52,326 bases of DNA from a virus (lineage: Duplodnaviria; Caudoviricetes). The notes beneath the pieces are model-generated. The model was not told where the DNA came from. It searched no databases and was given only the letters and a program-made list of their open reading frames with translations. Location: the IMG/VR virus record IMGVR_UViG_3300029317_000050, positions 1 to 52,326 of that record; one strand, given 5' to 3'. A program made the translations under genes and the position numbers. This document shows positions 1,293 through 52,326 of this stretch, in pieces. Positions within the stretch are counted from its first letter, which is position 1; the number at the start of each line of letters is the position of its first letter.

Positions 1293-2297
1293 TCAGGGTT
1301 GCCCGTAGCTAATCGAAGTATTGGTGATTCTTTTGTTGTGGATCGCCAGCGTTACGCGTCGGGCGGTCTCTTCATCAATCTTTGCCCATTCCATAAGACT
1401 TTCTTTAACTGCTGCTAGAGTCGCTGTATGAGGGTTGAGCGATGGGGTGGCAGGCTGAGCTGAAGGCGTTACAGCTGGTTGTTGCGTAGGTTCTTGCTGA
1501 GGTTGTGGTTCAGGCTTCGTTTCGTTCTCTGCTTTCTTGCGATCAAACGTACTATTGGTTAGAAGGGCGATTTCGTGACATTCTTCAATTTCATTCCTTA
1601 GCTTTAACTCTGCAGCTTTAGCATCGGCTACGCGCTTGGCTTCGGTACGCTTACGGTCAAATTCATTGTTCAGAAATAAGCCTATTTCATGGTCGGCGTC
1701 ACGAATGATTCTTTGCTTTTCTGTCTCAACTTGTTTCAGTGCTTTTTCCGTGGCTTCTTCGGCTGCTTGCTCTGCAATCTGCCTTTCATGAGCCATACGG
1801 TCCGATTCAGCCAACGCTGCAGCGTCTGCCTTGTCTCGATCAAGCTTTTCATTCATTAGAAGTGCTAGCTCGTGACATTTATCGACTTCAATTTTCAGGG
1901 CTTCGGCTGCAACTCTTTCCTCTTCCTCTTTCTTGATCCTCGCCTGGTCTGCTTCCCAGTCGGTGAGGGGTTTGCGGGTTAAGTCTCGAAGAGCATCCAT
2001 TTCTCTTGAAAATTCACGAAGCTCATCTTCTATTATTTTAGGAGTAGCTTTGATTACCTTGAGATATTCGCGACCTGGCTTTGTTACTGCAGTCTTTGAT
2101 GAAGACACTGCACTTGCTAAGCTCTTGATGCGAGCTCTACCTTTTGTGGTTGTCAGGTCTGGAACTTCGCTGGCCTTTTCGCGAGCGTCATCGATAAATA
2201 CCTGTAATCCACCTTTGCAATAAAGGGTAGGGTAGTTTTCTTTTTTGATATCAGGGAGCGGGGCTATTACTTGCTTTTCTTCTGCTGTGCTTGGCAT
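1293..2297 (-). CDS. Coiled-coil phage early protein (type often auto-annotated TolA-like)
   Basis: PDLTTTKGRARIKSLA...RKPLTDWE segment and long Ala/Glu/Lys helices; start moved to the ATG at 2297 (AAGG RBS). Confidence 0.75.
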   Translation of the reverse strand: MPSTAEEKQVIAPLPDIKKENYPTLYCKGGLQVFIDDAREKASEVPDLTTTKGRARIKSLASAVSSSKTAVTKPGREYLKVIKATPKIIEDELREFSREMDALRDLTRKPLTDWEADQARIKKEEEERVAAEALKIEVDKCHELALLMNEKLDRDKADAAALAESDRMAHERQIAEQAAEEATEKALKQVETEKQRIIRDADHEIGLFLNNEFDRKRTEAKRVADAKAAELKLRNEIEECHEIALLTNSTFDRKKAENETKPEPQPQQEPTQQPAVTPSAQPATPSLNPHTATLAAVKESLMEWAKIDEETARRVTLAIHNKRITNTSISYGQP

Positions 2298-2373
2298 TGT
2301 GATGTACCTTTTGATTGTTGTTACCGACAAAGCCCCCAATCAAGGAGGCTTTTGAGCGAGGTGGAGCTAGGTG

Positions 2374-2754
2374 TTACTGGGCTGCAGCTGGTTCAAGTGG
2401 TGCACTGGCAAGATATAAAGAAACCTCTTCCGGATCAAAGCACTTGTTGACAGTAAGCATTGTTTGCATTGGAAGGCTTTCGCTTGTAGTCGAGGCGCAA
2501 ACGGTATTAAGAGTTCCAAAGCTATTGGCTTCTTTTTTGATGAAATCCAAAGCCTTCTCGGAAGACATGCCGATTTCAATGTGGCGTGATGTTTCGTTGG
2601 TGCGCTCAATGACAAGCTCTTTCTTGGGTTGTGGTTTTGCTACTGGCATTTTTGTTCCTTTATCGTTTGGTTGCATTGATACTGCTGCGATTGAAATCAA
2701 TGATAAAATCAGCATTATTGCTGCGTTGGTATTTCTCATTGTTTGGGTTTGCAT
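2374..2754 (-). CDS. Hypothetical exported or membrane-anchored protein
   Basis: N-terminal hydrophobic stretch AAIMLILSLISIAAV. Confidence 0.6.
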   Translation of the reverse strand: MQTQTMRNTNAAIMLILSLISIAAVSMQPNDKGTKMPVAKPQPKKELVIERTNETSRHIEIGMSSEKALDFIKKEANSFGTLNTVCASTTSESLPMQTMLTVNKCFDPEEVSLYLASAPLEPAAAQ

Positions 2755-2789
2755 TGGTGTTACGTCCGTTTAACTGTTCTAGCTCGCCT

Positions 2790-3332
2790 CTAAAAGGGTA
2801 TGTCGTCCTCGAATTCAGAGCTTGCTGGTGATGGCGCGCCTTGCTGCTGAGGTGCTTGGCTATATTGCGGTTGCTGTGATTGTTGTGGTCTTTGCTGTTG
2901 ACTGGCCTGCTGCTGAGGTGCTTGTGCGTAACCTTGGCTTGGAGCTTGTGATTGCTGATGACCTCCGCTCTGCTGCCCGCCATTGCCCTCGCTGCGTGTA
3001 TCAAGCATCTGCATTTCACTAGCAACAATCTCGGTGGTGTATCGATCATTACCACTTTGATCTTGCCACTTGTTAGTTCTCAATGATCCTTCAACGTAAA
3101 TCTTTGAGCCTTTGCGAAGGTACTCGCCAGCAATCTCAGCTAGACGATTGAAGAAAACTACGCGGTGCCACTCGGTTCGCTCTTGGTTCTGGCCTGATTG
3201 CTTGTCCTGCCACGTCTCGCTTGTTGCAATGCTAACGTTGGTTACTGCATTACCATTGGGCATGTAACGTGTTTCTGGATCCTGCCCTAGATTACCGAGG
3301 ACAATAACTTTGTTAATACCTTTCCTAGCCAT
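2790..3332 (-). CDS. ssb: Single-stranded DNA-binding protein
   Basis: [26 protein letters not shown]-rich linker and C-terminal FEDDIPF. Confidence 0.97.
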
Positions 3333-3350
3333 GATTTGTTCCATAATTAT

Positions 3351-3378
3351 TAAAAAGAAGCGGGGTTCTACGCCCGCT
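3351..3378 (-). terminator. Putative intrinsic terminator after recT
   Basis: AGCGGG/CCCGCT stem followed by TCTTTTT on the minus strand. Confidence 0.5.
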
Positions 3379-3404
3379 ATAGGTCACAACGAGTCGGCAC
3401 GTTG

Positions 3405-4328: not shown

Positions 4329-5170
4329 TAGCATTCACCTTCTTCAAGAGCGGTTAATTTTTTAATATTCCAGGGAGCCAAGCCCATTGCTATGGATCCA
4401 ACTTGATAGCCAGGCCAGTAATCCATATCGATTGATTCAGATAAGTCAGCAAGCCCCTTTTCAACGGTTAGTTGAGCAAGACGTTGAGCCATTTGGTCAA
4501 ACGTGCAGGGACCAATGGTGCAGTAAGGCTGCTCTGTTTCAGTGACTACGAATGCGAACTCTCTTTTGCCAGTGACGTATCGATAAAGGATGTCTTGTAT
4601 GTGATATCCAAGGTCCACAGCTTTCTTTGTAAAATGTTCCGGCTCCGCTGATGCTGCAGTTTTTAGGTCAATGGCAAGATCAGGAAAGTCGTAATCAACA
4701 CGCGCCTTCAATACGATGTTCGTGTAAATCTCGTGGCGCTTCCAGTAGGAAACTTCAGGAGTGCCGCCAGTGAAGAATTTGGAGTGAGACGCCATAACGG
4801 CTTTCGCCATATTCTTTGCGTCATCCATATTTTCAGCTTTAAGAATTGTTTTATCTGAATTCTCTTCCTTGTACTTTTTCCATGCGTTGCTATTGCGAGA
4901 CTTTATTTCTTCTGGCTGAGTCACAAACTCACCATCGAATAACTCAGGTGTTAGCACTAGGCAGTGAACGGTTTTACCAAGGTCAAAACAATCTTTTTGC
5001 TCGAATGGCTTGCCGTATTTGAACTTAGCTGGATTGGCTATGTACTTCTTTAGTGAAGTTGACCCAAAGCCATGAGACTTGTGATACATCTCTTCATTAA
5101 AACCTTCAATGCGAAGCGTTTCACCGGGCCGCAGTGCCGCGATTTTTGTATTTATTTGTTCAAGATCCAT
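4328..5170 (-). CDS. RecE/exonuclease VIII-like PD-(D/E)XK nuclease (DUF3799-type)
   Basis: YH...GSTSLK, GKTVHCLVLTPE, KARVD, DLKT and YHIQ motifs; next to recT. Confidence 0.88.
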   Translation of the reverse strand: MDLEQINTKIAALRPGETLRIEGFNEEMYHKSHGFGSTSLKKYIANPAKFKYGKPFEQKDCFDLGKTVHCLVLTPELFDGEFVTQPEEIKSRNSNAWKKYKEENSDKTILKAENMDDAKNMAKAVMASHSKFFTGGTPEVSYWKRHEIYTNIVLKARVDYDFPDLAIDLKTAASAEPEHFTKKAVDLGYHIQDILYRYVTGKREFAFVVTETEQPYCTIGPCTFDQMAQRLAQLTVEKGLADLSESIDMDYWPGYQVGSIAMGLAPWNIKKLTALEEGEC

Positions 5171-5325
5171 TATGCTCTCACGATAGGTAGTGGAAATTTA
5201 ATTTTTTTGCCGTAGGCTTTGTGCATGTTTGCCAAATCTAATCGGCGGTAGAAGTTCTGCTTTCGTTGTCGATTTGAGTTGATGCGGTCGTTACCCTCAA
5301 CAGGCTGATTGAATATTTGTGCCAT
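5170..5325 (-). CDS. Small basic hypothetical protein (51 aa)
   Basis: ATG at 5325 with GAGG RBS; stop abuts the exonuclease start. Confidence 0.55.
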   Translation of the reverse strand: MAQIFNQPVEGNDRINSNRQRKQNFYRRLDLANMHKAYGKKIKFPLPIVRA

Positions 5326-5683
5326 TGATTGCCTCTGCTTCAGTTGCGTTAAATCGTTGTAGTTGGTATGCGAAGTAGTCTGAAATGCTTTCGCCTGTAG
5401 CGCTTTGTTCTTCGATAATTTCAGATATCTGTGGCTTGTGCTCTTCGCGCAATAGGTGTGCAACCTGCTGAGCATAAGCTCGCGCATTCTTTGGAATGTG
5501 TAACGGCAACAATGAGAGGCTGAAAAGCTTTTCATCATGAGCTAGCGTTTCATCAATTCCACTACCGTTCTCTACAGCCAATTGCTCGCGGTACATGGAT
5601 ACCATTACATCTTGCTGCAGTGTCGCTGAGTTGCCCCATGACTTGATTGCATTTTCCAGAATGTAGGTGCGTAGGTTGTTCAT
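5297..5683 (-). CDS. First gene of the early-left operon, hypothetical
   Basis: 128-aa ORF just downstream of the operator cluster. Confidence 0.7.
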   Translation of the reverse strand: MNNLRTYILENAIKSWGNSATLQQDVMVSMYREQLAVENGSGIDETLAHDEKLFSLSLLPLHIPKNARAYAQQVAHLLREEHKPQISEIIEEQSATGESISDYFAYQLQRFNATEAEAINGTNIQSAC

Positions 5684-5709
5684 TTATTTTATCTTTCCCT
5701 TTGTTGCTG

Positions 5710-5770
5710 TAGCAAGATATTGCTATATATTACATGCGCTGCAAGATAATGCAATAGCAATATATTGCTA
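5710..5770. promoter_or_regulatory. OL-like operator cluster (3 sites) with putative PL
   Basis: TAGCAAGATATTGCTA 5710-5725, CTGCAAGATAATGCAA 5739-5754, perfect palindrome TAGCAATATATTGCTA 5755-5770; same motif as in the cI-cro gap. Confidence 0.8.
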
Positions 5771-5859
5771 TTTAAAATTTATATTTCAGAATGCAGCTAC
5801 TCGCATTAGGCTGATGATTTCTGTATCGTCTCAACCTCTTTTTTCTAGGAAGGTAAAAA

Positions 5860-7941
5860 ATGAAAAGATTTACTTTAGTATGGGCTCTAATTATGAGCTT
5901 GAGTGTGGGGGAGTCTGTTGCTACGGATTTCGATAGTTTTGATTTTTTAGAAACGAATGTGTCTTCGGTTGCTAAAATGAGCCAGCCAATTAAGAAAGCA
6001 CCTGGTGCTGTAACAGTTATTACAGAAAAGCAAATCAAGCAGCTAGGTATTAAGTCTATAGCGGAGGCCATGAGATTGGTTCCAGGCTTCCATGTGGATT
6101 TTTCTAGCCCATTTACCTATGTAAATAGAGGGGCGAACTTCCCAACGGCTCGACGCCTACAAGTATTGATTGACGGAGTTAGCGAGGTTAATCCACTGGT
6201 AGGTGTAATTAACTGGGAGAACTTCCCGGTAGCTTTGGAGCGTATAGAGTCGATAGAAGTTGTTAGGTCACAATCCTCCGCAGCTCATGGAGCAAATGCT
6301 TTTTTCGGGACGATAAATATTGTTACAAAACACCCTGATGATATAAAAGGTGCTGAGTTACGAGTCGCGGGATCAAAAAAGGAGCGCACAGTTTATGGAG
6401 GCGGGGGCTTTGTAGCAGGGAATACCACCATAGCCATGGACTACAAGCATCATAATGCAAACAGATTCGATGAGTTTGCCGATGGGCGTCCTAATAGGCA
6501 CGATGACATGAGAGTAAAAAAAATCAATGTCACGACTCATACTAAAATTGACTCCGACCAGTCGATAATATTAAAGCTTGGGGCTGTTAGGTCAGATATG
6601 GAGCACCAACTATCTCAAACTGAGCCATTCGGGACTGAGCTGCCCATTGTAGAGCTTGATTCAAATGTTGCATCGTTGCGTTTTTTGAAGAGCACAAAGA
6701 ATCACGAGTTTGAGGCAAAAGTCTATTTCTATGAAAAAGACTGGCAGCACGAGTGGGACTTCTGCGCGCCTAAGTTGTTTTATGTTCCAGGGTTGGGTGA
6801 TCTCTATCGAGATAATAGTGCGCTTGTATTGGCAGCGTTAGGAGGCGCCGCTTTGCCTTCGGCGACAACAGACGAAATGATACGATTGGGAGGGATTTTT
6901 ACAGAAATAGCGGGGGACCCTACGTCCGGAGATACTGTGTGTGGAGAAATTAACGTTGATTATCGTTACAAAACGTATGCCGGGTCTATAAGTGATGTGT
7001 GGAGTATAACCGAAAAATTAAGGGCGTCGTCTAGCTTTCAATTGGATTACCGATGGATGGAAAGCGAAACGTATAACGATGGCGTTACTTCAATTCAAAA
7101 ATCAAAATTCTTTACTAATGTCGAGTACTTGCCCTTTGACAACCTAACGTTGAATGTGGGCTTTATGGCTGAATCGCTAGGTTATGACCTAGGAAACCCC
7201 GAGATCTCCCCTAGAATTGGCGCTAATCTTCATATAAATGATAGCAATACGCTAAAGCTTGTCTATTCAATGGGCAGCCGTTTAATTGATGGGATCGAGA
7301 TAATCGAGAGCAACCAAGTTCCCGTTCATTTCAATTTTGAAGTTTATGGTTCAACAAGACAATCACCATTTTTGGGATATTTTCCACTTTATAACAACAA
7401 AGACCACGTAGAAAGAATCGAGTCTACAGAGGTTATCCATTACGTAAAGGCGGGTGATTGGATGCTTGAAACGCGGGTCTTTCTTGAAGAATTAGACAAC
7501 ATCCTTAACTATCAAGATCAGTCAGGTTCGAGTATTACGGCGCTGGATAGAAAAGGTGGAGAGTTTACGGTGCGTTATAAAGTATCTGATATTGATGTGC
7601 GCTTTGCGGGCCATTATTTAGATAGCGATTCGAAAGACAAAATATTTTTCGATGATTATCATGCCTATGGTGGCAGTGCTTACGTAGCGAAAACGTGGGG
7701 CGATATAACCGGTAGCCTGTCATATTACGGTACTAGCGCTATAGATTATTCTTCATATGACCGCACGGACGCTCGAATTGCAAAGGTGTTCACACTAGAA
7801 ACGGCACAAGTTGAGTTGTCTGGGATGCTTTCTAGGCATAGAGAAGTGTATGTTAGGGCTCTTGATTATGGCGGTTTGATTGATGGAGGAAAGCGAGATA
7901 GCGTGAATGAAGTAACTCTAGAGGTTCGATTCACTCTTTGA
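5860..7941 (+). CDS. TonB-dependent outer-membrane receptor
   Basis: Signal peptide; plug motifs APGAVTVIT...SIAEAMRLVPG, LIDG, IESIEVVRS...HGANAFFGTINIVTK; SPRIGAN; C-terminal beta strand. Confidence 0.92.
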   Translation: MKRFTLVWALIMSLSVGESVATDFDSFDFLETNVSSVAKMSQPIKKAPGAVTVITEKQIKQLGIKSIAEAMRLVPGFHVDFSSPFTYVNRGANFPTARRLQVLIDGVSEVNPLVGVINWENFPVALERIESIEVVRSQSSAAHGANAFFGTINIVTKHPDDIKGAELRVAGSKKERTVYGGGGFVAGNTTIAMDYKHHNANRFDEFADGRPNRHDDMRVKKINVTTHTKIDSDQSIILKLGAVRSDMEHQLSQTEPFGTELPIVELDSNVASLRFLKSTKNHEFEAKVYFYEKDWQHEWDFCAPKLFYVPGLGDLYRDNSALVLAALGGAALPSATTDEMIRLGGIFTEIAGDPTSGDTVCGEINVDYRYKTYAGSISDVWSITEKLRASSSFQLDYRWMESETYNDGVTSIQKSKFFTNVEYLPFDNLTLNVGFMAESLGYDLGNPEISPRIGANLHINDSNTLKLVYSMGSRLIDGIEIIESNQVPVHFNFEVYGSTRQSPFLGYFPLYNNKDHVERIESTEVIHYVKAGDWMLETRVFLEELDNILNYQDQSGSSITALDRKGGEFTVRYKVSDIDVRFAGHYLDSDSKDKIFFDDYHAYGGSAYVAKTWGDITGSLSYYGTSAIDYSSYDRTDARIAKVFTLETAQVELSGMLSRHREVYVRALDYGGLIDGGKRDSVNEVTLEVRFTL

Positions 7942-7960
7942 TTAAAGTGTTGAGGGCTGC

Positions 7961-8893
7961 TTAATGCAGCCCTTTCTTTATTATGCCTTGCTCAACGAGC
8001 TTGCGGTTATTAGGTATGTCGTGAGCTGGTACGATGTGTATATTCGGGAATTCATTTTTTATACGAATTAGTGATTTGATTTGTGAATTTACGGCTTCGC
8101 TGTCTTCTCCAAGGATTATATGACTTGAAATTCTTGGTTTTCCTACTTCAAGCGTAATATTTGCCATTGAATACGCAATATCTCCAACTAGTAATATTTC
8201 AGTTCCGTTTTTTAACTTGATATACATTCCCTGGTTACCTGGGGTATGCCCTGGCACATTGAATAAAACCACACCAGGGGATATTTTATAAAGCCCCTTG
8301 TTGTCTATCACGTTCACTTTATCAAGCTGAGAAAGGCTAATAAACCCGTCTTTCATTGATGCCATCATATCGCTATTTCTTTGTGCTTTCGATACATAAA
8401 TAACATGCTTTATCTTGTCGAAAAGTTCAGTGTTAAATGCTCCGGCAAAGTGGTCCCAGTGCTCGTGAGTGAAATAGATTTGATGAGCCTTTTCTAGTGA
8501 TTTTTGCATTTTATTGTAGGCTTCTTCGTCGTAGTCATAAGCCCAAATCATAGTGTCGTGAAGCGCTTTGCTATGGACCGGATCAATGATTGAATAGCCA
8601 ACATCATATACTAGTTGATAGGTGACAAATTCGAATAGAGTTTCGGTTGTATGCCCCTTTGCCAGGCGAAACCATGACGGGAATTCACCGCGTGCAATTG
8701 TTATACTGCGCAGCTCGTTTGGTAGCTCCTCCGGTGTGTCGTCCACCATTATTTGCATGCGCTTAATGATTGTAGGCGTTAAATAGGGTGACTCGGTAAC
8801 GCTGTTTAAAGGGTCGCTATACCATAGGTAATAATAGGTTGATAGTGATACGGTGAACAGTATTGTGATGATTGCTAAAAGCTTACGGTTCAA
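7961..8893 (-). CDS. Exported or membrane-anchored metallo-beta-lactamase-fold hydrolase (lactonase-like)
   Basis: THEHWDH, PGHTPG, GDIAY and PAHD metal-binding motifs; N-terminal TM/signal. Confidence 0.88.
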   Translation of the reverse strand: MNRKLLAIITILFTVSLSTYYYLWYSDPLNSVTESPYLTPTIIKRMQIMVDDTPEELPNELRSITIARGEFPSWFRLAKGHTTETLFEFVTYQLVYDVGYSIIDPVHSKALHDTMIWAYDYDEEAYNKMQKSLEKAHQIYFTHEHWDHFAGAFNTELFDKIKHVIYVSKAQRNSDMMASMKDGFISLSQLDKVNVIDNKGLYKISPGVVLFNVPGHTPGNQGMYIKLKNGTEILLVGDIAYSMANITLEVGKPRISSHIILGEDSEAVNSQIKSLIRIKNEFPNIHIVPAHDIPNNRKLVEQGIIKKGLH

Positions 8894-10346
8894 AATTGTC
8901 TCCTGATAAGGTAACGATATTGGTATTAATGGCTCGAGAGGTGATGATAGGTGCTTGTTTATCTGCTGTCATTGTCTTTATGGGAATTGATATATTAATG
9001 GTTGTACCAACATTTTCGGTTGATTCTATATCTATTTCGCCACGAAGAAGCCCTACAAATTTCTTGACCATAGATAGTCCCATCCCTAATTTTGCCGCCT
9101 GAGAGTCGTCAAAAATATGTTTGTGTTCGTTTTCTCTGAACCCTGCGCCTGTATCATTGAGGCAGAAAGAGAGCCGGGTTCTCGTTGCTTTCCAGCTTAA
9201 GGCTATAGTTCCTGCTGTTGTGTTGTCAAAAGAATTGTCGAGTACACATGAAAGCACCTTGTAGAGCTTTTCCTCGTCTGTGATTGCTAGTAAGTCGCCA
9301 AGGCTGCTGTTTTCATCCGCCGAAACTTCAAATCTCAAGCGTGGAGTGTGCTTTTGGCTATAGATCGCATCAATTTTATTAATCAATTCGTTGGGATAAA
9401 ACGCATTTTCTTGGTATACGTGGTGGTCTTGTTCCAGCCCTTCAAAATCTATCAATTGATCTAATTGGGCGTTGATTGTTTTAGCCTCATTTTCAACGAG
9501 AGAAATCATGCCTTCAATTTCGGGGGGTATTTCATACTCCCTTAACTGGGGTTTTATGATATCGAGAAGCCCTGTTATAGTTTTAGTTCTGCTCTTTAAG
9601 TCCGTGGAAACGGAGTCCATAAGGCGTTTTTTCTGAGCTTGTAATAGCTCTTTGTCTGCGGTCTGCTTCGAGTGAATAGACCAAAGGCGGAAAAGCTCTT
9701 GTTCTATTTTATCGAATTCATGGATACCAATTCCATCAATGGGTTCGGGTTGAGCGCCGCTTGTTATACTAGTCAGTGTTTTCTCAGTTTTTCGAATAAA
9801 CTGGGCTGTTTTTCGATTTAGCCAAACAATGGCAATCAAAACTAGAAGGATTGCTATTGCAAATATAGCAATATGTGAACCTATGGCGTTGTTGATTTTC
9901 TCTTGAGTGTAGTGGTTAGATAACGTTAAATTTATGCTTCCCAATATGACCTCTGAATCGTCGTCCAAATCAAATATGTTTGGCCTTCGATCTTTTAGCA
10001 AGAACTCTGGTTGTGGCGAGATTCCGTGATTTGTAGGTATAGTTTTGTCATATATTGATGCAACAACGTCCTGCTCTGAGTCTTTTATCTCAATATGGTA
10101 AATCAAATTGTTGTTTTCTATTACTTCTGTTGCCATTTGTCGGATTGTGGCGCGATGACCCGTAGCCAACGCGAACATAAAGGACCTTTCAAGACCACTA
10201 ACCAATTGAACGGTCTGCCGCTCAAAATCAGCGTATGCAGCCTCTGAAAATTGGCGGTATGAGTAATATTGCGATGACGCCAATATCGTTGTTATCGATA
10301 CAAATAACAATATAGATAGGGAGCGCAGAGTATTAATTTTGATCAT
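8883..10346 (-). CDS. Membrane sensor histidine-kinase-like protein lacking the phospho-acceptor His
   Basis: Two TM helices around a periplasmic domain; HATPase boxes LDN, DTGAG, GMGL, GTT; H-box reads SVSTDLKS. Confidence 0.85.
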   Translation of the reverse strand: MIKINTLRSLSILLFVSITTILASSQYYSYRQFSEAAYADFERQTVQLVSGLERSFMFALATGHRATIRQMATEVIENNNLIYHIEIKDSEQDVVASIYDKTIPTNHGISPQPEFLLKDRRPNIFDLDDDSEVILGSINLTLSNHYTQEKINNAIGSHIAIFAIAILLVLIAIVWLNRKTAQFIRKTEKTLTSITSGAQPEPIDGIGIHEFDKIEQELFRLWSIHSKQTADKELLQAQKKRLMDSVSTDLKSRTKTITGLLDIIKPQLREYEIPPEIEGMISLVENEAKTINAQLDQLIDFEGLEQDHHVYQENAFYPNELINKIDAIYSQKHTPRLRFEVSADENSSLGDLLAITDEEKLYKVLSCVLDNSFDNTTAGTIALSWKATRTRLSFCLNDTGAGFRENEHKHIFDDSQAAKLGMGLSMVKKFVGLLRGEIDIESTENVGTTINISIPIKTMTADKQAPIITSRAINTNIVTLSGDNFEP

Positions 10347-11172
10347 CTTCGCCCCCTTTATTCTTAATTTCTAAGTTCATAAAGCTTGCGAGTCTGTTGT
10401 TTACCATTGTTTCGGTATTTGCAAAGTTGTGCTTTTTAACTGCGCTAATGTCTTTGTTTATTAGCGAGTTGGTAATATCGACCGTTTTTGAAATAATTGA
10501 ATTATGATTGGCTACTACGGTAAGAACTGCCCCTTTGGTTTGTAAAGCAGGGTTTGAACTGATTGCTGCAACCTTGTTCCTAAAAAGGGATTCCAATACA
10601 TATAGTATGTTTTTTCTATTAAATATCTCTCGGTTCTCTGTGATGTAGAGAGCATCAAGGGGTCCAGTGTTAAAAATGAACCTAAAAGTTTTAAATATAT
10701 CGTCGGAAACAAGCTTTTGTTCGGTAAGCTTTATATCGGTGGCTCTAAGGCGCGTTAGGTAAGGTTCATTAGTGTCTGCAAAAATATAACCTATCCGACT
10801 GCTCGGGAACTTCTTTTCAATTTCTAAGGCTAACTCATTGGGGTTAGGGTCTGAATATACAGCGTATTTTTCGCTTTGATTTTTCTGTGTATTGAATGAG
10901 TTGTAGCTTACAAATGAGGCAACGTGCGGCTTGGTGCTGTTTTCAAGCTCGTTGAATGCTTTGTTGCCAAGAGTTATAACAACTTTATATGTGCTTTCAT
11001 CGGGGGGAGATGTGACAATTTCACTGCTGTCTATTTGCTTTGATAGGTTTTCTGCAATTTGCAATGCAGATGAGTTGTCTTGGGTAAAGATTACAACGTC
11101 AGCTCCCCAAGAGGCTTGGGAAAAAAGAACAAACGAAAGGAAAAAAAGTACTAATTTCCGAGACATGCCCAT
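10333..11172 (-). CDS. Periplasmic ABC-substrate-binding-like (YfiR-like) protein
   Basis: Signal peptide ending ASWG-A; VVITLGNKAF and LESLFRNKVAAISSNPALQTKGA segments; overlaps the kinase start. Confidence 0.65.
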   Translation of the reverse strand: MGMSRKLVLFFLSFVLFSQASWGADVVIFTQDNSSALQIAENLSKQIDSSEIVTSPPDESTYKVVITLGNKAFNELENSTKPHVASFVSYNSFNTQKNQSEKYAVYSDPNPNELALEIEKKFPSSRIGYIFADTNEPYLTRLRATDIKLTEQKLVSDDIFKTFRFIFNTGPLDALYITENREIFNRKNILYVLESLFRNKVAAISSNPALQTKGAVLTVVANHNSIISKTVDITNSLINKDISAVKKHNFANTETMVNNRLASFMNLEIKNKGGEDDQN

Positions 11173-11184
11173 GTGTTTCGCATG

Positions 11185-11730
11185 TTATAAGGTGCCTAGT
11201 TTTGCTAATTGCAATAGTGCCTTCATGGCTTCTTTCATTTCCGGGGACTCAATGGCAAATTTCTTTTCGATATGTATTTTAATTATTTCCGAAAAAGCGG
11301 CTTCAAGCTGTCTTTTGTTTAGTTCAGAGAATGCATCGATACCAATATCATTACCCGCTTTTGATATCGCTATATAAATTTTACCTTCAGTTGCTGCGTC
11401 TATTTGCTTCTTTTCAATTGTGTTGTCATTTGGCATTGGCAAACTGTCACCATTGAGCAAGTACGATTCAATATCATATTTTGAAACAGTACTCCCTTTT
11501 TTTCGGTGAGCTTCCTTGTATATGCTGTCGAGAAGTAGGGCAAAGCTATCTGGCTTTGGGGGTTTGTCATTCTCTAAGCTTTTCCGGATACCTGGTGACG
11601 TAAGCCCAGACCACGTGGCGAGTATGGGCATTCTGCCGCGCTCCTTTAGCCCGAGTTTATCTAGAAGGGCATGGAGGCGCCCAGTGAACCCGGCTGTACA
11701 GATTACAGTTGAGAGTTTAACAGCGCTCAT
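11185..11730 (-). CDS. XRE/phage-repressor-like HTH transcription factor
   Basis: FTGRLHALLDKLGLKERGRMPILATWSGLTSPGIRKSLENDKPP resembles phage repressor N-terminal HTH domains. Confidence 0.65.
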   Translation of the reverse strand: MSAVKLSTVICTAGFTGRLHALLDKLGLKERGRMPILATWSGLTSPGIRKSLENDKPPKPDSFALLLDSIYKEAHRKKGSTVSKYDIESYLLNGDSLPMPNDNTIEKKQIDAATEGKIYIAISKAGNDIGIDAFSELNKRQLEAAFSEIIKIHIEKKFAIESPEMKEAMKALLQLAKLGTL

Positions 11731-11809
11731 TGTAACGGGTCCCTAAGTAAACTTGGCATTGGCGTTCGGAATTTGTGAGGTCTTACAGAATAATAACGAA
11801 TTATGCACC

Positions 11810-11880
11810 AAATAGAAACATTTTAGGAAATTATTAGAATTTATTTAGAAACCAAATAGAAACTAAATAGAAACTAATAG
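11810..11880 (+). repeat. Array of 6-7 degenerate 11-bp direct repeats (consensus about AAATAGAAACT)
   Basis: TAG cores at 11813, 11824, 11835, 11846, 11857, 11868 (exact 11-bp phase), then 11878. Confidence 0.8.
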
Positions 11881-11909
11881 TTGATTTCACTAAATTGTCT
11901 GGCTATATT
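11881..11909 (+). promoter_or_regulatory. Putative sigma70 promoter for the small ORF
   Basis: TTGATT-N17-TATATT directly after the repeat array. Confidence 0.6.
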
Positions 11910-11954
11910 CGGATCCAGGGGGCAGTGACAACAACAGAACATAAGGAATTTTGA

Positions 11955-12137
11955 GTGGATTTTAATGAAGATGCTTACAAAGAAGTAGAAAGAGCTATTG
12001 CGCTATCAGAGGTAATGCAATTATTAGATCCAGCTGAAATGTCAAAGTTCATGCTGAGCGGTTATGGGGAGGCTATTGAGGCAACGCTGCGCTCAGCGCT
12101 TAACAATATGTTAAACGGTGGCCTTGGCAACTCTTAG
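11955..12137 (+). CDS. Small acidic helical protein (60 aa), candidate antirepressor
   Basis: AAGGA RBS, GTG start, own promoter; convergent with and overlapping the repressor 3' end. Confidence 0.55.
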   Translation: MDFNEDAYKEVERAIALSEVMQLLDPAEMSKFMLSGYGEAIEATLRSALNNMLNGGLGNS

Positions 12138-12665
12138 CATCATTTTTTGTTTTTTGGGTGAGCACTTGTGAAAAAGAGCAATAAACTCTTCTAAATCATC
12201 ATTCTTGGCTGGTGCTTTAGAAGGCACCTCCCCTTTGGGCCGACTGGAAGCCTTTGTTTTTTCGAGCGGGTGACTCACTAGTTTAGATAATATGCCCTCA
12301 CGCTGTTCGGTAGGTGCTTTTATAAAGTTGCTTACAAGAGTATCGAGCTCGTCACTTTCCAAAAAGTCCGGGTGCAAGTTTGGGATCAGCAATTGCCAGA
12401 CAGGCATATCAAAATAATGAGCAACACTTTCTATGTTACTTAGAGCAGGATTCGGCCTGTCTTCAAGGTTGCACCGTCTCATGTTGTTTAAGGTTCTTTG
12501 AGATGTGCCAATTTTTCTGGCGATCTGACCCTCGGTAGCCACCGGGCCGCCGCGCGTTGATTTTGAAATCAAAAAATCCAGATGCGTCGCGAGCGTTTCT
12601 TTTGCCGACTTCTTTCTTCTTTTACGGGCCATTTCTAATTCGCTTTCATCTATGTGGTCGTTCAT
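12111..12665 (-). CDS. CI-like repressor (XRE HTH, no S24 peptidase domain)
   Basis: TEGQIARKIGTSQRTLNNM...NPALSNIESVAHYFDMPVWQLL; divergent from a cro-like gene across operators; alternative start at 12632. Confidence 0.85.
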   Translation of the reverse strand: MNDHIDESELEMARKRRKKSAKETLATHLDFLISKSTRGGPVATEGQIARKIGTSQRTLNNMRRCNLEDRPNPALSNIESVAHYFDMPVWQLLIPNLHPDFLESDELDTLVSNFIKAPTEQREGILSKLVSHPLEKTKASSRPKGEVPSKAPAKNDDLEEFIALFHKCSPKKQKMMLRVAKATV

Positions 12666-12694
12666 TTTTAATGCCCCATTATAATATGCTGCTA

Positions 12695-12798
12695 TAGCAA
12701 TATGTTGCTTAATATATAATCTAATTATAGCAAAATATTGCTAATTTATAAACTTGCTGATAGCAACATCTTGCGATAGCAATATAATGCTATATACT
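12695..12798. promoter_or_regulatory. OR-like operator cluster (4 sites) with putative PR
   Basis: TAGCAATATGTTGCTT 12695, TAGCAAAATATTGCTA 12728, TAGCAACATCTTGCGA 12761, TAGCAATATAATGCTA 12777; TTGCGA-N16-TATACT. Confidence 0.85.
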
Positions 12799-12804
12799 GG
12801 CAAA

Positions 12805-13065
12805 ATGAATCTATTAAACGAAACAAATCGCCTTCTAAGTAAATACAAATACTCCGACTGCAAGCGCATATCGATCGCAAGCGATGTCAATTTTCATTGG
12901 CTTGCAACTTTCCGCAAAGGGGGCATAGCCGAACCCGGAGTGCAAAAAGTTCAAAAGCTTCATGACGCTCTTTTGTTAATGGAACCTAAGCCAAGCCCCG
13001 CCAACGATTCAAGAATACCTCTCTCCACAGAAAGCGCACCACTTAACGTAAGGGAAGGAAAATGA
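12805..13065 (+). CDS. Cro-like HTH protein
   Basis: RISIASDVNFHWLATFRKGGIAEPGVQKVQKL; first rightward gene after the operators. Confidence 0.75.
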   Translation: MNLLNETNRLLSKYKYSDCKRISIASDVNFHWLATFRKGGIAEPGVQKVQKLHDALLLMEPKPSPANDSRIPLSTESAPLNVREGK

Positions 13066-13502
13066 ACGCACTAATAAAAGAGCTAATTGCTTGTGGTGAT
13101 TATGCTGCAGCGCATGAAAAAGCTGTCGAGGAGTACCGAAAAATCAAGCACGCAACTATTGCTGGTTGGTTTGAAGAGCATGGCTTGCCAGCGAGAAGCA
13201 TCAACCATGAGATTGCACGAATCTCCTCGTGCCTGAATCCCAATAAGAAAGAATATTTCAAACCTATCGAATGGCAGATCATTCAAAAGGAATCAGGCAA
13301 TTACACGCTGTATGAGGCTGAGTCTCAATTCTATGGCTTTGCTCGCCCTGCAGAGCTAGAGGCGCGCGAACAGCAGGAAGCTCTATTGAAAAGAAAGGAA
13401 GCGCTTGAGGCTGAACTGAACATGACTAATGCAATGTTGGGCGGGAAAATTCAACCTACGCAATCCTTGCACCTTTATTCAACCAAAAACAAACACGCAT
13501 AA
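13062..13502 (+). CDS. CII-like phage regulatory protein
   Basis: Position after cro; ISSCLNPNKKEYFKP segment resembles phage CII-family regulators. Confidence 0.5.
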   Translation: MNALIKELIACGDYAAAHEKAVEEYRKIKHATIAGWFEEHGLPARSINHEIARISSCLNPNKKEYFKPIEWQIIQKESGNYTLYEAESQFYGFARPAELEAREQQEALLKRKEALEAELNMTNAMLGGKIQPTQSLHLYSTKNKHA

Positions 13503-13540
13503 AAAAGCCCGCGAACTTTATCAGAGAGAGCGGGCTTTTT
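13501..13540 (+). terminator. Intrinsic terminator (possibly bidirectional)
   Basis: AAAAAAGCCCGC...GCGGGCTTTTT. Confidence 0.7.
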
Positions 13541-13567
13541 CATTTGTACATCACGGGGATTATATTA

Positions 13568-14500
13568 ATGGCAAGATCGAGAAATATCAAGCATACATTT
13601 TTTAAAGATGATGAGTTGGCTGAATTACCTTTCGAGAATCGTCTTTATTTTATCGGGCTTTGGACGCAGGCAGATTGTAAAGGGCGTATCGAGTACCGAC
13701 CAAAACGGATAAAGGCAGAGATATTCCCGTATGACGACGGAATTAATATTGATGAGCTTACAGTTAATCTGTCCAAGTACCGATTTATTCGGATTTATTC
13801 GGTACAAGGACGACGTTACATTGAAATAGCTAATTTCCTCAAACATCAGAACCCACACAAGAATGAGAGAGATAAAGGTTCGGCTATCCCACCTCCAGAA
13901 GAGGGTGTTGCTGTAGACCTTACAAATAAAGGGCTGCAGAAAAGTACCGAATCAATCGGTACCGGAACCGATTTAATCGGTAGTGCTCCTGCTGATTCCT
14001 GTTTCCTGAATCCTGAATCCTGTTCCCTGAATCCTGATTCGTCGGGACAAACTCAAGAACAAAATAAATCGGTCGAGAGTTTTCAAAGCGAAGCGCCGTC
14101 AGTGGAGCCGCCAGAAATTCAACTAGATATTCTCACAGGGGATCCTGAAGTACTTTCTGAAACTCAGCTGACCGACTTAGCTTGCATCAAAGTTATTGAC
14201 CACCTCAACGAAAAAGCTGGTAAGAATTTCACATACGCTGACTCGCACAAAGAACACATCAAGGCCAGGCTCAATGAAGGCCACACCTTGGAGAAGGTCC
14301 TTCAAGTAATTGACCTCAAGGTTGATGATTGGCTGAATGACAAGGAGTACAACAGGTTCCTGCAACCGGGAACCCTGTTTAACGGCAAGAAATTTAATAA
14401 CTACGTTGGCCAAGTAGGTTGTAAGCCAGCACCGAAGAAAACTGAATTCCCTGTTCACAATCAAGCGAAGTCTGCTAGAGCGGGGTTTGCTAATGCTTAA
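13568..14500 (+). CDS. Phage replication initiator
   Basis: MARSRNIKHTFF...RLYFIGLWTQADCKGR N-terminus; C-terminal VIDHLNEKAGKNF...FLQPGTLFNGKKFNNY domain; followed by a DnaC-like gene. Confidence 0.85.
   Translation: MARSRNIKHTFFKDDELAELPFENRLYFIGLWTQADCKGRIEYRPKRIKAEIFPYDDGINIDELTVNLSKYRFIRIYSVQGRRYIEIANFLKHQNPHKNERDKGSAIPPPEEGVAVDLTNKGLQKSTESIGTGTDLIGSAPADSCFLNPESCSLNPDSSGQTQEQNKSVESFQSEAPSVEPPEIQLDILTGDPEVLSETQLTDLACIKVIDHLNEKAGKNFTYADSHKEHIKARLNEGHTLEKVLQVIDLKVDDWLNDKEYNRFLQPGTLFNGKKFNNYVGQVGCKPAPKKTEFPVHNQAKSARAGFANA
13944..14039. repeat. Putative origin iterons inside the initiator gene
   Basis: Two 19-bp near-palindromes GTACCGAATCAATCGGTAC (13944) and GAACCGATTTAATCGGTAG (13965), then 7 tandem CCTGWWY-type heptamers (13991-14039). 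Confidence 0.6.
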
Positions 14501-24104: not shown

Positions 24105-25668
24105 TCTTGATATCAACGAAGAATTAACCATTGCCGAGATTCAAGAGAATCTTGGGAATTGGGAGTGGAGGATAAACAACCTTTACAGGATCAGCATTAA
24201 GCCACCTGAAAAGGATGAAGACGCAGAAGAAGATGATGAGCCTGCAGTACTTGAAATGACTTTCAAGATGAACTGGGCACAGGAAGCTTTGTTTCATGGT
24301 ATGTGGAACCGGAATGTGATCTTAAAAGCCCGTCAGTTGGGTATGACCACATTCATCATGATCTTTATGCTGGATCAGATACTTTTCAATGACAACATTC
24401 ATTGCGGCGTGATTACGCAGGGGCTTAATGAATCTTCGAGTTTGTTCAATGGCAAGATTCTTTATGCCTATGACAGATTGCCTGAATGGTTGAAGCGATT
24501 AAAGAAGCCAATCAAGCGTACTGGATCGCATCTTGAGTTTGAAAATGGTTCGTACATTACTGTCGGAACATCAATGCGTTCCGGAACACTTCATTACTTG
24601 CATATATCGGAGTTTGGAAAGATATGTGCAAAGTATCCTGAAAAGGCTGTTGAGATAGTTACCGGCTCATTCCCTGCAGTGCCGACCAATGGCGTGATAT
24701 TTATTGAGTCTACTGCAGAAGGGCAAGCTGGTTATTTTTACGAGTACTCAACCAAGGCCCGCAATAAGCAGTTGGCTATGAAGAAGCTGACCAGGAAGGA
24801 ATATAAGTTCTTCTTCTTTCCATGGTGGGAACAAGCCGAATATCGGTTGAATGATAGTGAAGTTGATGACACGCCAATACCGACACGCCTTGTTGAGTAT
24901 TTCTATGAGTTAGAGGAAGAGATGGGGATTGAATTAACCCCAAATCAAAAGGCTTGGTACGTCGCAACTGAGGAAGAGCAGGGTTCGAAGATGAAACGAG
25001 AGTTTCCTTCGACTGCAGATGAAGCCTTTGAGCAGTCTGTTGAAGGTGCCTACTTCTCTAAAGAGTTTGCAGATATTTACTCGAGCAACCGGATTACTTC
25101 CGTTCCCTGCCAGCCTGGTGTTCCCGTTGATACTTGGTGGGATTTGGGTATGGGAGATTCTATGGTGATTTGGTTGACTCAAACCATTGGTGGCTGGATT
25201 CACGTTATTGATTATTACGAGAATTCAGGTGAGGGCATGAAGCATTACATCAAGGTTTTGCAGGATCGCGGTTATCTGTTTGGTCAGCATTACGGGCCTC
25301 ATGATTTGGAAGTGCGAGAGCTCATGGGAGATGGCAGTAGTCGTGTAGCCAAGGCCAAGAAGTGGGGCTTCAACTTTAACGTCGTTCCCCGGGTGCCAGA
25401 TAAGCAAGACGCAATTGATGCAGCACGTGATGCGTTGCCTATTTGTATCTTTGATGAAGAGAAATGCGACCAGGGAATTAAGAAACTAGAGCGGTACAAG
25501 AAAAAGTGGAATATCAAGTTAGGGCGGTGGGAAGACAAGCCTCTACATGATGATGCCAGTGATACAGCCGATGGATTTATGACAATGGCCATGGGTCACC
25601 CAATGTTCTCTCGTGTAAACGGTAGAGCTCGATCAGTTAGAAAAGTGAAAAGCGGAAGGACAGCATGA
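24091..25668 (+). CDS. terL: Terminase large subunit
   Basis: ILKARQLGMTT, LHISEFG, IESTAEG, WDLGMGD, GPHD, PLHDDASDTADG. Confidence 0.95.
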   Translation: MPDVDLDINEELTIAEIQENLGNWEWRINNLYRISIKPPEKDEDAEEDDEPAVLEMTFKMNWAQEALFHGMWNRNVILKARQLGMTTFIMIFMLDQILFNDNIHCGVITQGLNESSSLFNGKILYAYDRLPEWLKRLKKPIKRTGSHLEFENGSYITVGTSMRSGTLHYLHISEFGKICAKYPEKAVEIVTGSFPAVPTNGVIFIESTAEGQAGYFYEYSTKARNKQLAMKKLTRKEYKFFFFPWWEQAEYRLNDSEVDDTPIPTRLVEYFYELEEEMGIELTPNQKAWYVATEEEQGSKMKREFPSTADEAFEQSVEGAYFSKEFADIYSSNRITSVPCQPGVPVDTWWDLGMGDSMVIWLTQTIGGWIHVIDYYENSGEGMKHYIKVLQDRGYLFGQHYGPHDLEVRELMGDGSSRVAKAKKWGFNFNVVPRVPDKQDAIDAARDALPICIFDEEKCDQGIKKLERYKKKWNIKLGRWEDKPLHDDASDTADGFMTMAMGHPMFSRVNGRARSVRKVKSGRTA

Positions 25669-40574: not shown

Positions 40575-41027
40575 ATGCCGATTATTAGAAAAGCCACTGA
40601 AAGTGATATTGATGCGTTCATTCTTTTGGCGCATGAATTTTATTTAGAACAAACCAACTTCGCGCACACTGAATTTGATGCTTACAGTGTGGCGATTTCA
40701 TTTATCTCCTATATCAACTCCAGCAAGCATGTTGTTTTTCTGGCTGTGATTGATGGCGAACTTGTTGGTTTCTTAATGGCAAGGACAGCAAAAACCCTTT
40801 GGGGCTCAGACTTAGAGGCTCACGATGGAGCCTTTTATGTTTCACGCTCAGCAAGGGGTAACGGGTTTGCAGGATTGCTTATGAGTGAGTACAAAGCGTG
40901 GGCATTGTCTTTAGGAGCAACCCCTCATGTCACAGTGCGAGCCGATATTGATCATGAGGCAACGAAGGGAATGCTTGTGAAAAATGGATTTGAACTGCTT
41001 GGTTTTACGATGAGGGCAAAAGTATGA
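40575..41027 (+). CDS. GNAT-family acetyltransferase
   Basis: IRKATESD, GELVGF, FYVSRSARGNG, KNGF. Confidence 0.85.
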   Translation: MPIIRKATESDIDAFILLAHEFYLEQTNFAHTEFDAYSVAISFISYINSSKHVVFLAVIDGELVGFLMARTAKTLWGSDLEAHDGAFYVSRSARGNGFAGLLMSEYKAWALSLGATPHVTVRADIDHEATKGMLVKNGFELLGFTMRAKV

Positions 41028-51414: not shown

Positions 51415-52326
51415 ATGGGGAGTACTTATCAGTCCTTATTTGAGAAAAGACTAGTTCACCAAGCACCTAAGTTTTTAGATACCGCGATTCAATATGAAGT
51501 GGTAATGGGTTCTATTGCCTATGGCGTGGCGACTGACTCATCGGATATGGATGTGTATGGCTTCGCTATTCCACCCCGTGATTATGTGTTTCCTCATCTT
51601 AGGGGAGAGATAGCAGGGTTTGATGAGCCAGGGGTTCGGTTTGATCAATTTCAGCAGCACCACATAATCGACAAACCAGCTATGGGTGGGAAAGGTCGAG
51701 AATATGACCTGACGGTGTATTCTATTATCAAGTACTTTCGATTATTGATGGATAATAACCCTAATATTATTGATTCATTGTTTGTGCCGCGAAACTGTGT
51801 GCTTTATTCAACACAGGTAGGTGAGATGGTTAGGGAGAATCGCCACATCTTTTTACATAAAGGGTGTTGGGCAAAGTTTAAGGGTTATGCCTATTCTCAA
51901 GTGCACAAAATGAAAACAAAGGATCCAATTGGTAAGCGTAAGGATACAATTGCTAAATATGGTTATGACGTAAAATTTGCCTATCATGTGGTGAGGCTTC
52001 TAAACGAAGTGGAGCAGATTTTAACAGAGAAGGATTTAGATTTACTTAGAAACAAAGAGCAGTTAAAAGCTATTCGACGTGGTGATTGGAGTCAGGAGCA
52101 GGTCGAAGAGTATTTCGTTTCTAAAGAAAGGGAGCTTGAAACCTTGTACTCAAAAAGTACGCTACCGGCTAAACCTGATAAAGATAAGATCAAAACGTTG
52201 TTGTTGGAATGTCTTGAGCATGCATACGGTAGTTTGGAAAAATGTGTTGTCGTAGAAGATGAGGCGGTAAGGGCATTGGGACAAATACAAACAATACTGG
52301 ATAGTGTGCAAAATATAAAATACTAG
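51415..52326 (+). CDS. Host nucleotidyltransferase (Pol-beta superfamily)
   Basis: GSIAYG...SDMDVYG, NNPNIIDSLF, YDVKFAYHVVRLL; outside the att site. Confidence 0.9.
   Translation: MGSTYQSLFEKRLVHQAPKFLDTAIQYEVVMGSIAYGVATDSSDMDVYGFAIPPRDYVFPHLRGEIAGFDEPGVRFDQFQQHHIIDKPAMGGKGREYDLTVYSIIKYFRLLMDNNPNIIDSLFVPRNCVLYSTQVGEMVRENRHIFLHKGCWAKFKGYAYSQVHKMKTKDPIGKRKDTIAKYGYDVKFAYHVVRLLNEVEQILTEKDLDLLRNKEQLKAIRRGDWSQEQVEEYFVSKERELETLYSKSTLPAKPDKDKIKTLLLECLEHAYGSLEKCVVVEDEAVRALGQIQTILDSVQNIKY

Follow-up and report, generated by a model that had tools for sequence, protein, structure and literature searches.

A divergent transcription factor/small-gene pair abuts cI

The locus considered here lies in IMG/VR record IMGVR_UViG_3300029317_000050, a phage element assembled inside a 224-kb contig, and is built around a small gene, smORF60, a candidate antirepressor of the adjacent cI-type repressor. 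The whole stretch that was analysed, 52,326 nucleotides (nt), is called the window; the host, with a genome of 6.66 Mb, is known from metagenomes alone. The gene order of the phage is lambda-like and includes genes for replication, recombination, lysis and terminase. Three open reading frames (ORFs) make up the locus. TF181 (11185..11730, - strand) codes for a predicted transcription factor (TF) of 181 residues. smORF60 (small ORF; 11955..12137, + strand) codes for 60 residues from a GTG start and is divergent from TF181, at a spacing of 224 bp. The third, cI184 (12111..12665, - strand), codes for a 184-residue repressor with a Cro/C1-type helix-turn-helix (HTH) and converges on smORF60, which it overlaps by its last 27 bp (12111-12137). 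An earlier note on this DNA had described this arrangement, overlap included, and had suggested that the pair acts as an antirepressor switch driven by a sensing module. The layout was borne out, and it fits the published TF-smORF logic: a divergent TF/small-ORF pair, in a temperate phage, beside the master repressor.

A second, diverged copy of the locus is carried by L010, a metagenome contig of 1232 nt. It covers the C-terminal portion of a cI homologue, the small ORF that converges on it, the intergenic region, the TF gene and the start of the next gene, with TF and small ORF arranged as in the window. A search of a phage database gave no DNA match for positions 11000-13600 and no match to TF181, and the host genome contains no second copy of TF181, smORF60, cI184 or the 279-residue protein encoded next to TF181.

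smORF60 is a conserved gene with coding character

The GTG start of smORF60 is preceded, at 7 nt, by an AAGGA ribosome-binding site (11943..11947, + strand), and the small ORF of L010 has the purine-rich AAAGGGGA 5 nt ahead of its GTG. The length of smORF60 is not above chance on its own, as 996 of 5000 shuffles of the 410-nt gap produced a closed ORF of 60 codons or more. For codon usage, the smORF60 frame scores +0.34 bits per codon, the other five frames being negative, and this value exceeds that of all 108 of 108 shadow ORFs of 45-110 residues found within 16 reference genes of the window (maximum 0.29). The L010 homologue, of 63 residues, uses the same GTG start and is 42-45% identical to smORF60 at the amino acid level, without gaps over 60 codons. 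The proportions of non-synonymous and synonymous differences between the two were 0.344 (pN) and 0.717 (pS), and the differences fall 29/14/34 at the three codon positions. Among the six frames, only that of the small ORF is open in both copies. The overlap with the 3' end of cI is also kept, at 27 nt in the window and 36 nt in L010, and both loci encode an acidic protein, with isoelectric points (pI) of 4.2 and 4.7, respectively. Because its codon score lies above those of the shadow ORFs and its frame and start are conserved in L010 with pN below pS, smORF60 is, as judged from these comparisons, a real, conserved protein-coding gene under purifying selection. The view that smORF60 is an ORF open by chance, in the DNA that separates cI from the TF operon, would be in keeping with the outcome of the shuffles, with a promoter match at background level and with relatives found in a single contig; we nevertheless regard it as highly improbable, since no shadow ORF reaches the codon score and since frame, start and length are conserved, with selection against amino acid changes, while the flanking non-coding DNA is 40-43% identical.

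The earlier note had called the small protein acidic and helical, and this is supported by its pI, its net charge of -6.5 and an AlphaFold2 (AF2) model, in which residues 3-23 and 31-57 form a two-helix hairpin (predicted local distance difference test, pLDDT, 84.9). No family was assigned to smORF60 in Pfam, PHROGs or NCBIfam, nor in Pfam at E <= 10 when the L010 homologue was included. A word-based protein search found only smORF60 itself, and an exhaustive profile search of 1.84 billion representatives with the smORF alignment found it together with two long proteins (1966 and 574 residues) matched in multiple stretches, which were taken as spurious. Scans of IMG/VR with smORF60 and with the smORF alignment gave nothing related, and Foldseek gave no match of the model in BFVD at E <= 0.001. 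The Pfam family PF25738, "Derepression", had come up as a candidate; its Atlas cosine of 0.82 is at chance level, Pfam at E <= 10 was empty, and it was rejected. BLASTP detected no similarity of smORF60 to cI184, and neither a profile comparison of TF with cI nor BLASTP of cI against TF detected any; with no similarity in either pair, there is no sign of paralogy or mimicry.

Conserved direct repeats adjoin the smORF60 promoter

The putative promoter of smORF60 (11881..11909, + strand) consists of TTGATT (11881-11886), a 17-nt spacer and TATATT (11904-11909), and is thus present, together with the AAGGA site, as the earlier note had pointed out. It scores 9/12, and the region has six such sites against 4.6 +/- 2.2 in shuffles; the match is not above chance on its own. 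In L010 the corresponding elements are TTGATT, 17 nt and TAGTAT, so both hexamers and their spacing are kept. Three tandem 11-bp direct repeats, ATTTAGAAAC, AAATAGAAAC and AAATAGAAAC (11843..11874; GTTTCTATTT-type on the - strand), end 6 bp ahead of the -35 hexamer and would be candidate sites for TF181. They span about -73 to -42 relative to the promoter, a position typical of activator sites at bacterial promoters. The first of them (11843-11852) matches AAATAGAAAC at 8 of 10 positions. Exact copies of AAATAGAAAC number three in the window, all within 11810-11874, and 33 in the 6.66-Mb genome, where they form no second cluster. The fourth copy of the repeat (11810..11819) lies 80-89 nt upstream of the TF181 start and is a candidate autoregulatory site at the promoter of the TF operon, which was assigned by eye.

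Alignment of the window with L010 revealed an uneven pattern of conservation across this region. Identity is 76% in the block that holds the fourth repeat (11789-11822), 30% in 11823-11842, where there is an 11-nt indel, 82% over the tandem repeats plus the -35 hexamer, 40% in the promoter spacer, 80% in the -10 block and 43% in the 5' untranslated region (UTR) of the small gene. By this comparison, the repeats and the promoter hexamers are conserved islands in otherwise diverged DNA. A TF homologue is also encoded by G008, a metagenome-assembled genome (MAG) of another genus in the Pseudomonadales; there, similar tandem repeats of about 11 bp with a common TCTATTTAG core are found at a similar distance upstream of the gene. 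These footprints fit TF sites that serve a divergent promoter pair, at which TF181 itself may bind. A 17-mer of the repeats was also used to scan IMG/VR; all nine of the nine matching stretches were chance, with no tblastn match at E <= 1. Within the 5' UTR, a stretch shared with L010 (11928-11945, TGA(C)CAAC.ACAGA.CA) is conserved and may be a further regulatory element.

We also looked for signs of SOS control. No LexA-type box, CTGT-N8-ACAG, was found at the smORF60 promoter (PsmORF), by a consensus that may not be the host's own. With up to one mismatch, the whole window has eight matches against 17.8 expected, the one nearest to PsmORF being TTGT..ACAG at 11773-11788. The only exact match in the window, at 25939-25954 inside a gene for 657 residues (25665-27638), is probably due to chance, because matches overall are fewer than expected. 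A search of positions 5000-14000 with Rfam gave just a sub-threshold Thr-leader row, at 13498-13565.

smORF60 and the C-terminal part of cI form a hypervariable block

The genes of the locus have diverged to very different extents between the window and L010. The TF is 88% identical at the amino acid level and 85% at the nucleotide level, and the DNA-binding part of cI (residues 62-96) is 74% and 71% identical, respectively. Identity falls to 37% (amino acids) and 49% (nucleotides) in the tail of cI (residues 97-126), and to 42% and 57-58% in the small ORF. Judged from this pair, smORF60 and the C-terminal part of cI are one hypervariable block between conserved flanks. Such a block fits two readings, that of matched partners and that of a recombination mosaic of adjacent DNA.

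For the L010 type of cI, a full-length sequence is given by P0007, which has 133 residues and is 63% identical to cI184 over 126 residues; the 18.8-kb contig that encodes it may carry a third copy of the locus. Compared with both P0007 and L010, cI184 has a C-terminal insertion of 51 residues. By eye, the last 25 or so residues of cI184 (LEEFIALFHKCSPKKQKMML...) echo residues 106-130 or so (LDTLVSNFIKAPTEQREGIL...), with a low-complexity linker between them (12111-12340, residues about 106-184), and the tail helix of cI184 may have been internally duplicated.

The pattern of divergence bears on the question of what smORF60 acts upon. The small gene could be real and controlled by TF181 and have a target other than cI, for instance in feedback on TF181 or on the kinase-like sensor encoded downstream of it, or a host protein. 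A divergent TF/small-gene layout with conserved repeats would suit any small gene under the control of a TF, and the helical hairpin predicted for smORF60 is a generic fold for which no relative was informative. Against this, the small gene is absent from the non-phage cassette of G008 and present only where a cI gene abuts, and it diverges along with the cI tail, unlike the well-conserved TF. We consider a target other than cI unlikely, if still worth keeping in mind.

cI184 is without a cleavage domain and lies in a lambda-like immunity region

The repressor assignment of cI184 is based on several features. In the Atlas, its sequence features fall with HTH_3/HTH_31 clusters (0.92-0.94) and its structure with a viral HTH_26 cluster (TM 0.50/0.77), and four operators separate its gene from a divergent cro-like gene. 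No peptidase S24 domain was detected in cI184 (no Pfam hit at E <= 0.1); its Atlas neighbours are HTH-only, save for one S24 cluster (TM 0.38), the match to which is confined to the HTH part. Since it is without an autoproteolytic S24 domain, cI184 would need some antagonist. A scan of 20 other ORFs of the phage found none that matches a PHROG family annotated as antirepressor. Relatives of cI184 were few. The phage database returned one weak match (30% identity, query coverage 43%, E 0.01), scans of metagenomes and of IMG/VR gave nothing related, a search of 28 genomes of the host's family found only cI184 itself, and sequence searches of the PDB with cI184 and with the cI alignment gave nothing meaningful.

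Four TAGCAA-N4-TTGCTA operators, at 12695, 12728, 12761 and 12777, form the putative right operator, OR (12695..12792), with a candidate PRM on the - strand (12724-12752) and a candidate PR on the + strand (12771-12798). Two exact operators (5710-5725 and 5755-5770) form the left operator, OL (5710..5770), upstream of a leftward recombination operon that encodes SSB, RecT and a PDDEXK protein. Allowing up to two mismatches, the search found nine matches to the operator where 4.0 were expected; those at 5710, 5755 and 12728 are the only exact ones, and none of the nine lies at the smORF60 promoter. The cro-like gene (12754..13065, + strand) shows a weak match to phrog_9425, "transcriptional repressor" (E 0.0048), and its true start is probably the ATG at 12806. 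A palindrome at the cI stop and the 3' end of smORF60, TTAACAATATGTTAA (12100-12114), matches the operator at 12695 in 12 of 15 positions, with one good half-site; it could be a weak distal operator or a chance match.

OL and OR are about 7 kb apart, and a TonB receptor gene, the TF181 operon, smORF60 and cI184 lie between them. Because the two operators bracket the cassette, smORF60 and cI, all of these by their position belong to the immunity region that is expressed in the lysogen. No terminator-like site was found between cI184 and the TF operon, or on the + strand from smORF60 to OR; with none present, transcripts from PRM and PsmORF would run through each other. It could be imagined that the functional product is the transcript itself, convergent or antisense transcription from PsmORF lowering cI expression and the peptide being secondary. 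The 3' overlap with cI, of 27 and 36 nt, in both loci would suit this idea, as would the lack of a terminator-like site as far as OR. However, the reading frame is under purifying selection, keeps its start and is free of indels at 42% amino acid identity, the nucleotide identity of the small gene is just 57-58%, and Rfam gave no matches, all of which makes a purely RNA-based function very unlikely in our judgement.

TF181 is a predicted XRE-type factor that heads a conserved operon

The earlier note had called the 181-residue protein an HTH factor. No domain was found in TF181 in Pfam, NCBIfam or PHROGs, and in this respect the assignment is left without support; modest support comes from a structure model. 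The AF2 model (pLDDT 79) is all-helical, with a five-helix N-domain and a four-helix C-domain. With VIA-align, the N-domain matched many XRE-family HTH structures over residues 9-96 (Z 4.7-6.3), including C.EcoT38IS (Z 6.3), Stl (Z 6.0), P22 c2 (Z 5.5, 23% identity) and the 434 repressor (Z 5.1). TF181 is thus, by its model, a DNA-binding protein with a predicted XRE-type HTH at about residues 9-96; structure comparison gave no clear relative of its four-helix C-domain. The homologue in G008 is 33% identical to TF181, and that in L010, as said, 88%. Using the TF alignment, a scan of IMG/VR and a sequence search of the PDB gave nothing related or meaningful, and a scan of genome contigs found the G008 contig again and no other. 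In X3, a marine metagenome from another study, there is an 86%-identical TF variant (11169-11735), and the DNA upstream of it diverges directly after the start codon. The cro region, too, is represented in X3, by a 219-nt piece (12773-12991) that differs from the window at one position. Because both the TF variant and the cro piece occur in X3, related phages and cassettes are, on this comparison, present in more than one sample.

The operon that TF181 heads is tightly packed: a gap of 12 nt is followed by overlaps of 14 and 11 nt. The second gene (10333..11172, - strand) encodes the 279-residue protein, which has a signal-peptide-like N-terminus and is 31% identical to the protein in the same position in G008; it has no Pfam or NCBIfam family and no PDB relative, also when its alignment was used. 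That it is a periplasmic solute-binding protein was a guess that no tool confirmed, and we report it as family-less. The third gene (8883..10346, - strand) encodes a membrane-bound, kinase-like protein of 487 residues with a HATPase_c domain (Pfam, 2.2e-15) and a full-length match to phrog_857 (1e-21). Its best NCBIfam row is the LuxQ core, at 81 bits, far below the cut-off. No HisKA was found by Pfam, HATPase_c being the only domain matched; there is no receiver domain, and in the H-box the His is replaced by Thr, with VSTDLKSRT in the window against VSHEMRQPL in the G008 homologue. The latter, 25% identical, has both the phospho-accepting His and a receiver domain. The last gene (7961..8893, - strand) encodes an enzyme of 310 residues with a metallo-beta-lactamase fold, most like N-acyl homoserine lactone (AHL) lactonases (Pfam Lactamase_B, 2.6e-5; NCBIfam AiiA, 3.2e-11, at 42.9 bits where the cut-off is 375); it also has an HxHxDH motif and a hydrophobic segment at its N-terminus. 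Adjoining the operon, and part of the conserved cassette, is the gene for a TonB-dependent receptor of 693 residues with a Plug domain (5860..7941, + strand); the receptor next to the cassette of G008 shares 45% identity with it. PADLOC, run on six proteins, gave nothing credible. The term sensing module, which the earlier note had used, is supported insofar as the cassette is conserved. By the sequence of its proteins, however, the operon is not a canonical two-component system, because the H-box His of the kinase-like protein is a Thr and TF181 is without a receiver domain.

The cassette of G008 (L003, 7497-15202; L011) lies on a 114-kb contig and is unaccompanied by phage genes. It stands beside a divergent parA-parB pair and carries a P450 where the window has the lactamase-fold enzyme, and no small ORF was found at it. 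The repeats of the G008 TF, of about 11 bp, lie 48-80 bp upstream of parA, and the partition operon would be the divergent target there; the kinase gene is at 9853-11745 of L003. A distant TF-like gene in L005, the one contig inspected among four with distant matches, adjoins a kinase-like gene (2096-3391), the product of which, by eye, also seems to be without the His. Elsewhere in the window, a GNAT acetyltransferase gene (40575-41027) lies among the tail genes, and a gene of the RlaP family (RNA repair pathway DNA polymerase beta family; 51415-52326) forms the right end.

The distribution of the cassette raises the possibility that TF181 is a mere autoregulator of a moron that is carried in the immunity region, like rexAB of lambda, and benefits the host by uptake, sensing and degradation, with smORF60 belonging to the cI cassette and being controlled otherwise, for example by convergent PRM transcription. 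The TF, the 279-residue protein, the kinase-like protein and the TonB receptor do travel jointly outside phages, beside parAB in G008, with the same type of upstream repeats; the distant TF-like gene of L005 is also beside a kinase-like gene; and no terminator-like site separates cI from the TF operon. Yet the repeats abut the -35 hexamer of the small gene, with an 11-bp periodicity from about -42 to -73, and are conserved along with both hexamers, whereas the TF-proximal side holds just one copy. On balance, this alternative seems to us quite unlikely.

Comparison with known antirepression modules

By analogy of architecture, the closest described counterpart would be the XRE-LuxR-smORF modules of Aeromonas phages, XRE(Apop)-LuxR(Apop)-smORF(Apop)/ARM81ld (Silpe et al. 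2023, PMC10432266). There, as here, an XRE-type factor heads an operon that encodes a receptor, and a short, unannotated, counter-oriented ORF roughly 150-220 nt upstream encodes a small protein without homologues; one Aeromonas module is described as an XRE-LuxR operon with a 156-nt smORF about 150 nt upstream, the product of which inactivates cI (PMC10432266). The Aeromonas product targets the cI of its own phage (PMC10432266), whereas cI is the proposed target of smORF60. The systems also differ in the sensor, which is a cytoplasmic LuxR in Aeromonas and here would involve a secreted protein, a His-less kinase-like membrane protein, a lactonase-like enzyme and a TonB receptor. Whereas the Aeromonas phages are repA-telN plasmid phages, the present one is lambda-like (O/P-type replication, RecT, OL/OR) and lies inside a 224-kb contig. 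Moreover, unlike in the Aeromonas set, the cI here is without an autoproteolytic domain, and the module lies directly next to cI, with an overlap at the 3' end of cI, and is known from sequence alone. In PMC10432266 the search was constrained to linear plasmid-like phages (repA-telN or parB locus) with an autoproteolytic cI, a constraint that is not part of the logic of the modules. That context is not found here, where cI has no S24 domain and replication is of the O/DnaC type; telN itself was not searched for.

In the VqmA(Phi)-Qtip module of phage VP882, a small gene of opposite orientation is turned on by a TF, and its product inactivates cI, leading to lysis without DNA damage (PMC10432266, PMC12802170). 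Compared with VqmA, TF181 is without a recognisable ligand-binding domain; VqmA and Qtip were compared by description, not by sequence. TF72-smORF72 and TF63-smORF63 of Vibrio 1F-97 phages pair a lone TF with a small ORF of about 56 residues (PMC10432266). They counteract only the cognate repressor and do so without proteolysis (PMC10432266); the co-divergence in the present locus would predict specificity of this kind. These modules sit between repA and telN or near parB, in phages with a cleavable cI, and their natural cue is given as unknown (PMC10432266), whereas the present locus encodes a candidate sensing apparatus in cis.

The position of the present module within the immunity region also recalls better-known phages. 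In lambda, the rexAB morons follow cI within the OL-OR interval and are active in lysogens, and oop is a short convergent antisense RNA that overlaps the 3' end of cII. The window is lambda-like in having accessory genes downstream of cI between OL and OR and a convergent transcript over the 3' end of a regulator gene, and the five-gene sensor/uptake cassette occupies the position of rexAB. Unlike in lambda, the cassette is a putative sensor operon rather than an exclusion system, and the gene overlapped by the convergent transcript, which codes for a conserved protein, is cI instead of cII. Non-cleavable repressors are relieved by antirepressors in several phages, among them coliphage 186 (Tum), P22 (Ant) and the Gifsy phages; these antirepressors are typically under LexA or other SOS control and encoded elsewhere in the genome. 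N15 also has a non-cleavable repressor that is relieved by an antirepressor (cited in PMC10432266). As in these four cases, an S24-less repressor such as cI184 would need a protein antagonist. Unlike the antirepressors of 186, P22 and Gifsy, smORF60 abuts cI, and its promoter carries no LexA-type box by the consensus used.

smORF60 as a candidate output of a phage-borne sensory module

The explanation that we favour, and to which we give an even chance of being right, is that smORF60 is a small, TF-controlled antirepressor of cI and the output of a sensory module carried by the phage. The lysogen would make TF181 along with the secreted protein, the His-less kinase-like membrane sensor and the lactonase-like enzyme. 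TF181 would bind the 11-bp direct repeats that abut the -35 hexamer of smORF60, and also the one copy at its own promoter, and upon a cue reported by the sensor proteins it would switch on smORF60. The small protein would then bind the variable C-terminal part of the non-cleavable cI184 and inactivate it, thereby freeing PR and PL and inducing the prophage. The smORF60 transcript, meeting no terminator before cI, would run antisense through it and may add transcriptional interference. We thus infer three things: TF181 binds to the repeats as an activator of the promoter, smORF60 binds cI, and the sensor proteins control TF181.

Several points weigh against the antirepressor model. The valley of divergence may be a recombination mosaic, smORF60 and the 3' end of cI being adjacent and overlapping. 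The fold matches of TF181 are middling, with Z at most 6.3, and Foldseek found no match for it in the PDB at E <= 0.001. XRE-type HTH dimers mostly bind inverted repeats, direct ones being unusual, and the repeats could serve only the promoter of the TF operon itself; repeats of this kind face parA in G008, where there is no small ORF. TF181 could as well repress PsmORF, because a 9/12 promoter is fairly strong and an unregulated antirepressor would be incompatible with lysogeny. As for signalling, the kinase-like protein is without its phospho-accepting His and TF181 without a receiver domain. Finally, two copies of the locus are known, so that the arguments from conservation and co-divergence come down to one pairwise comparison, and the case for function is built from sequence comparison and predicted structures alone.

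It also seems possible, though we hold it doubtful, that the module goes further than this, in a lambda-like prophage without any SOS route. Envelope sensing carried by the phage itself, through the TonB receptor, a secreted binding protein, the pseudo-kinase and the lactonase-like enzyme, would signal without phosphotransfer to a receiver-less XRE factor, which would trigger production of a hypervariable antirepressor fitted to the variable C-terminal domain of the phage's cI.

Among the known ways in which prophages are induced independently of SOS, TF-smORF modules are the main one. According to the discussion in PMC10432266, the natural cues of most of them are unknown. In the literature searched, they are described only for linear plasmid-like phages (PMC10432266, PMC12802170, the supplementary tables of PMC10432266 lying outside the search), and no description, judging from the listings, couples a phage-encoded histidine kinase with antirepressor-driven prophage induction. 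If the antirepressor model is true, the TF-smORF logic would be extended to an integrated lambda-like phage with a non-cleavable repressor. The presence of the TF in one operon with a candidate sensing/uptake apparatus would offer a concrete handle on what the module listens to, and the co-divergence of smORF60 with the C-terminal part of cI suggests where the two proteins may make contact and how their specificity may evolve. Should the envelope-sensing version prove true as well, this would be the first TF-smORF module with a natural extracellular input encoded in cis, and smORF60 and cI184 would make up a repressor/antirepressor specificity cassette that diversifies against cross-induction among related prophages.

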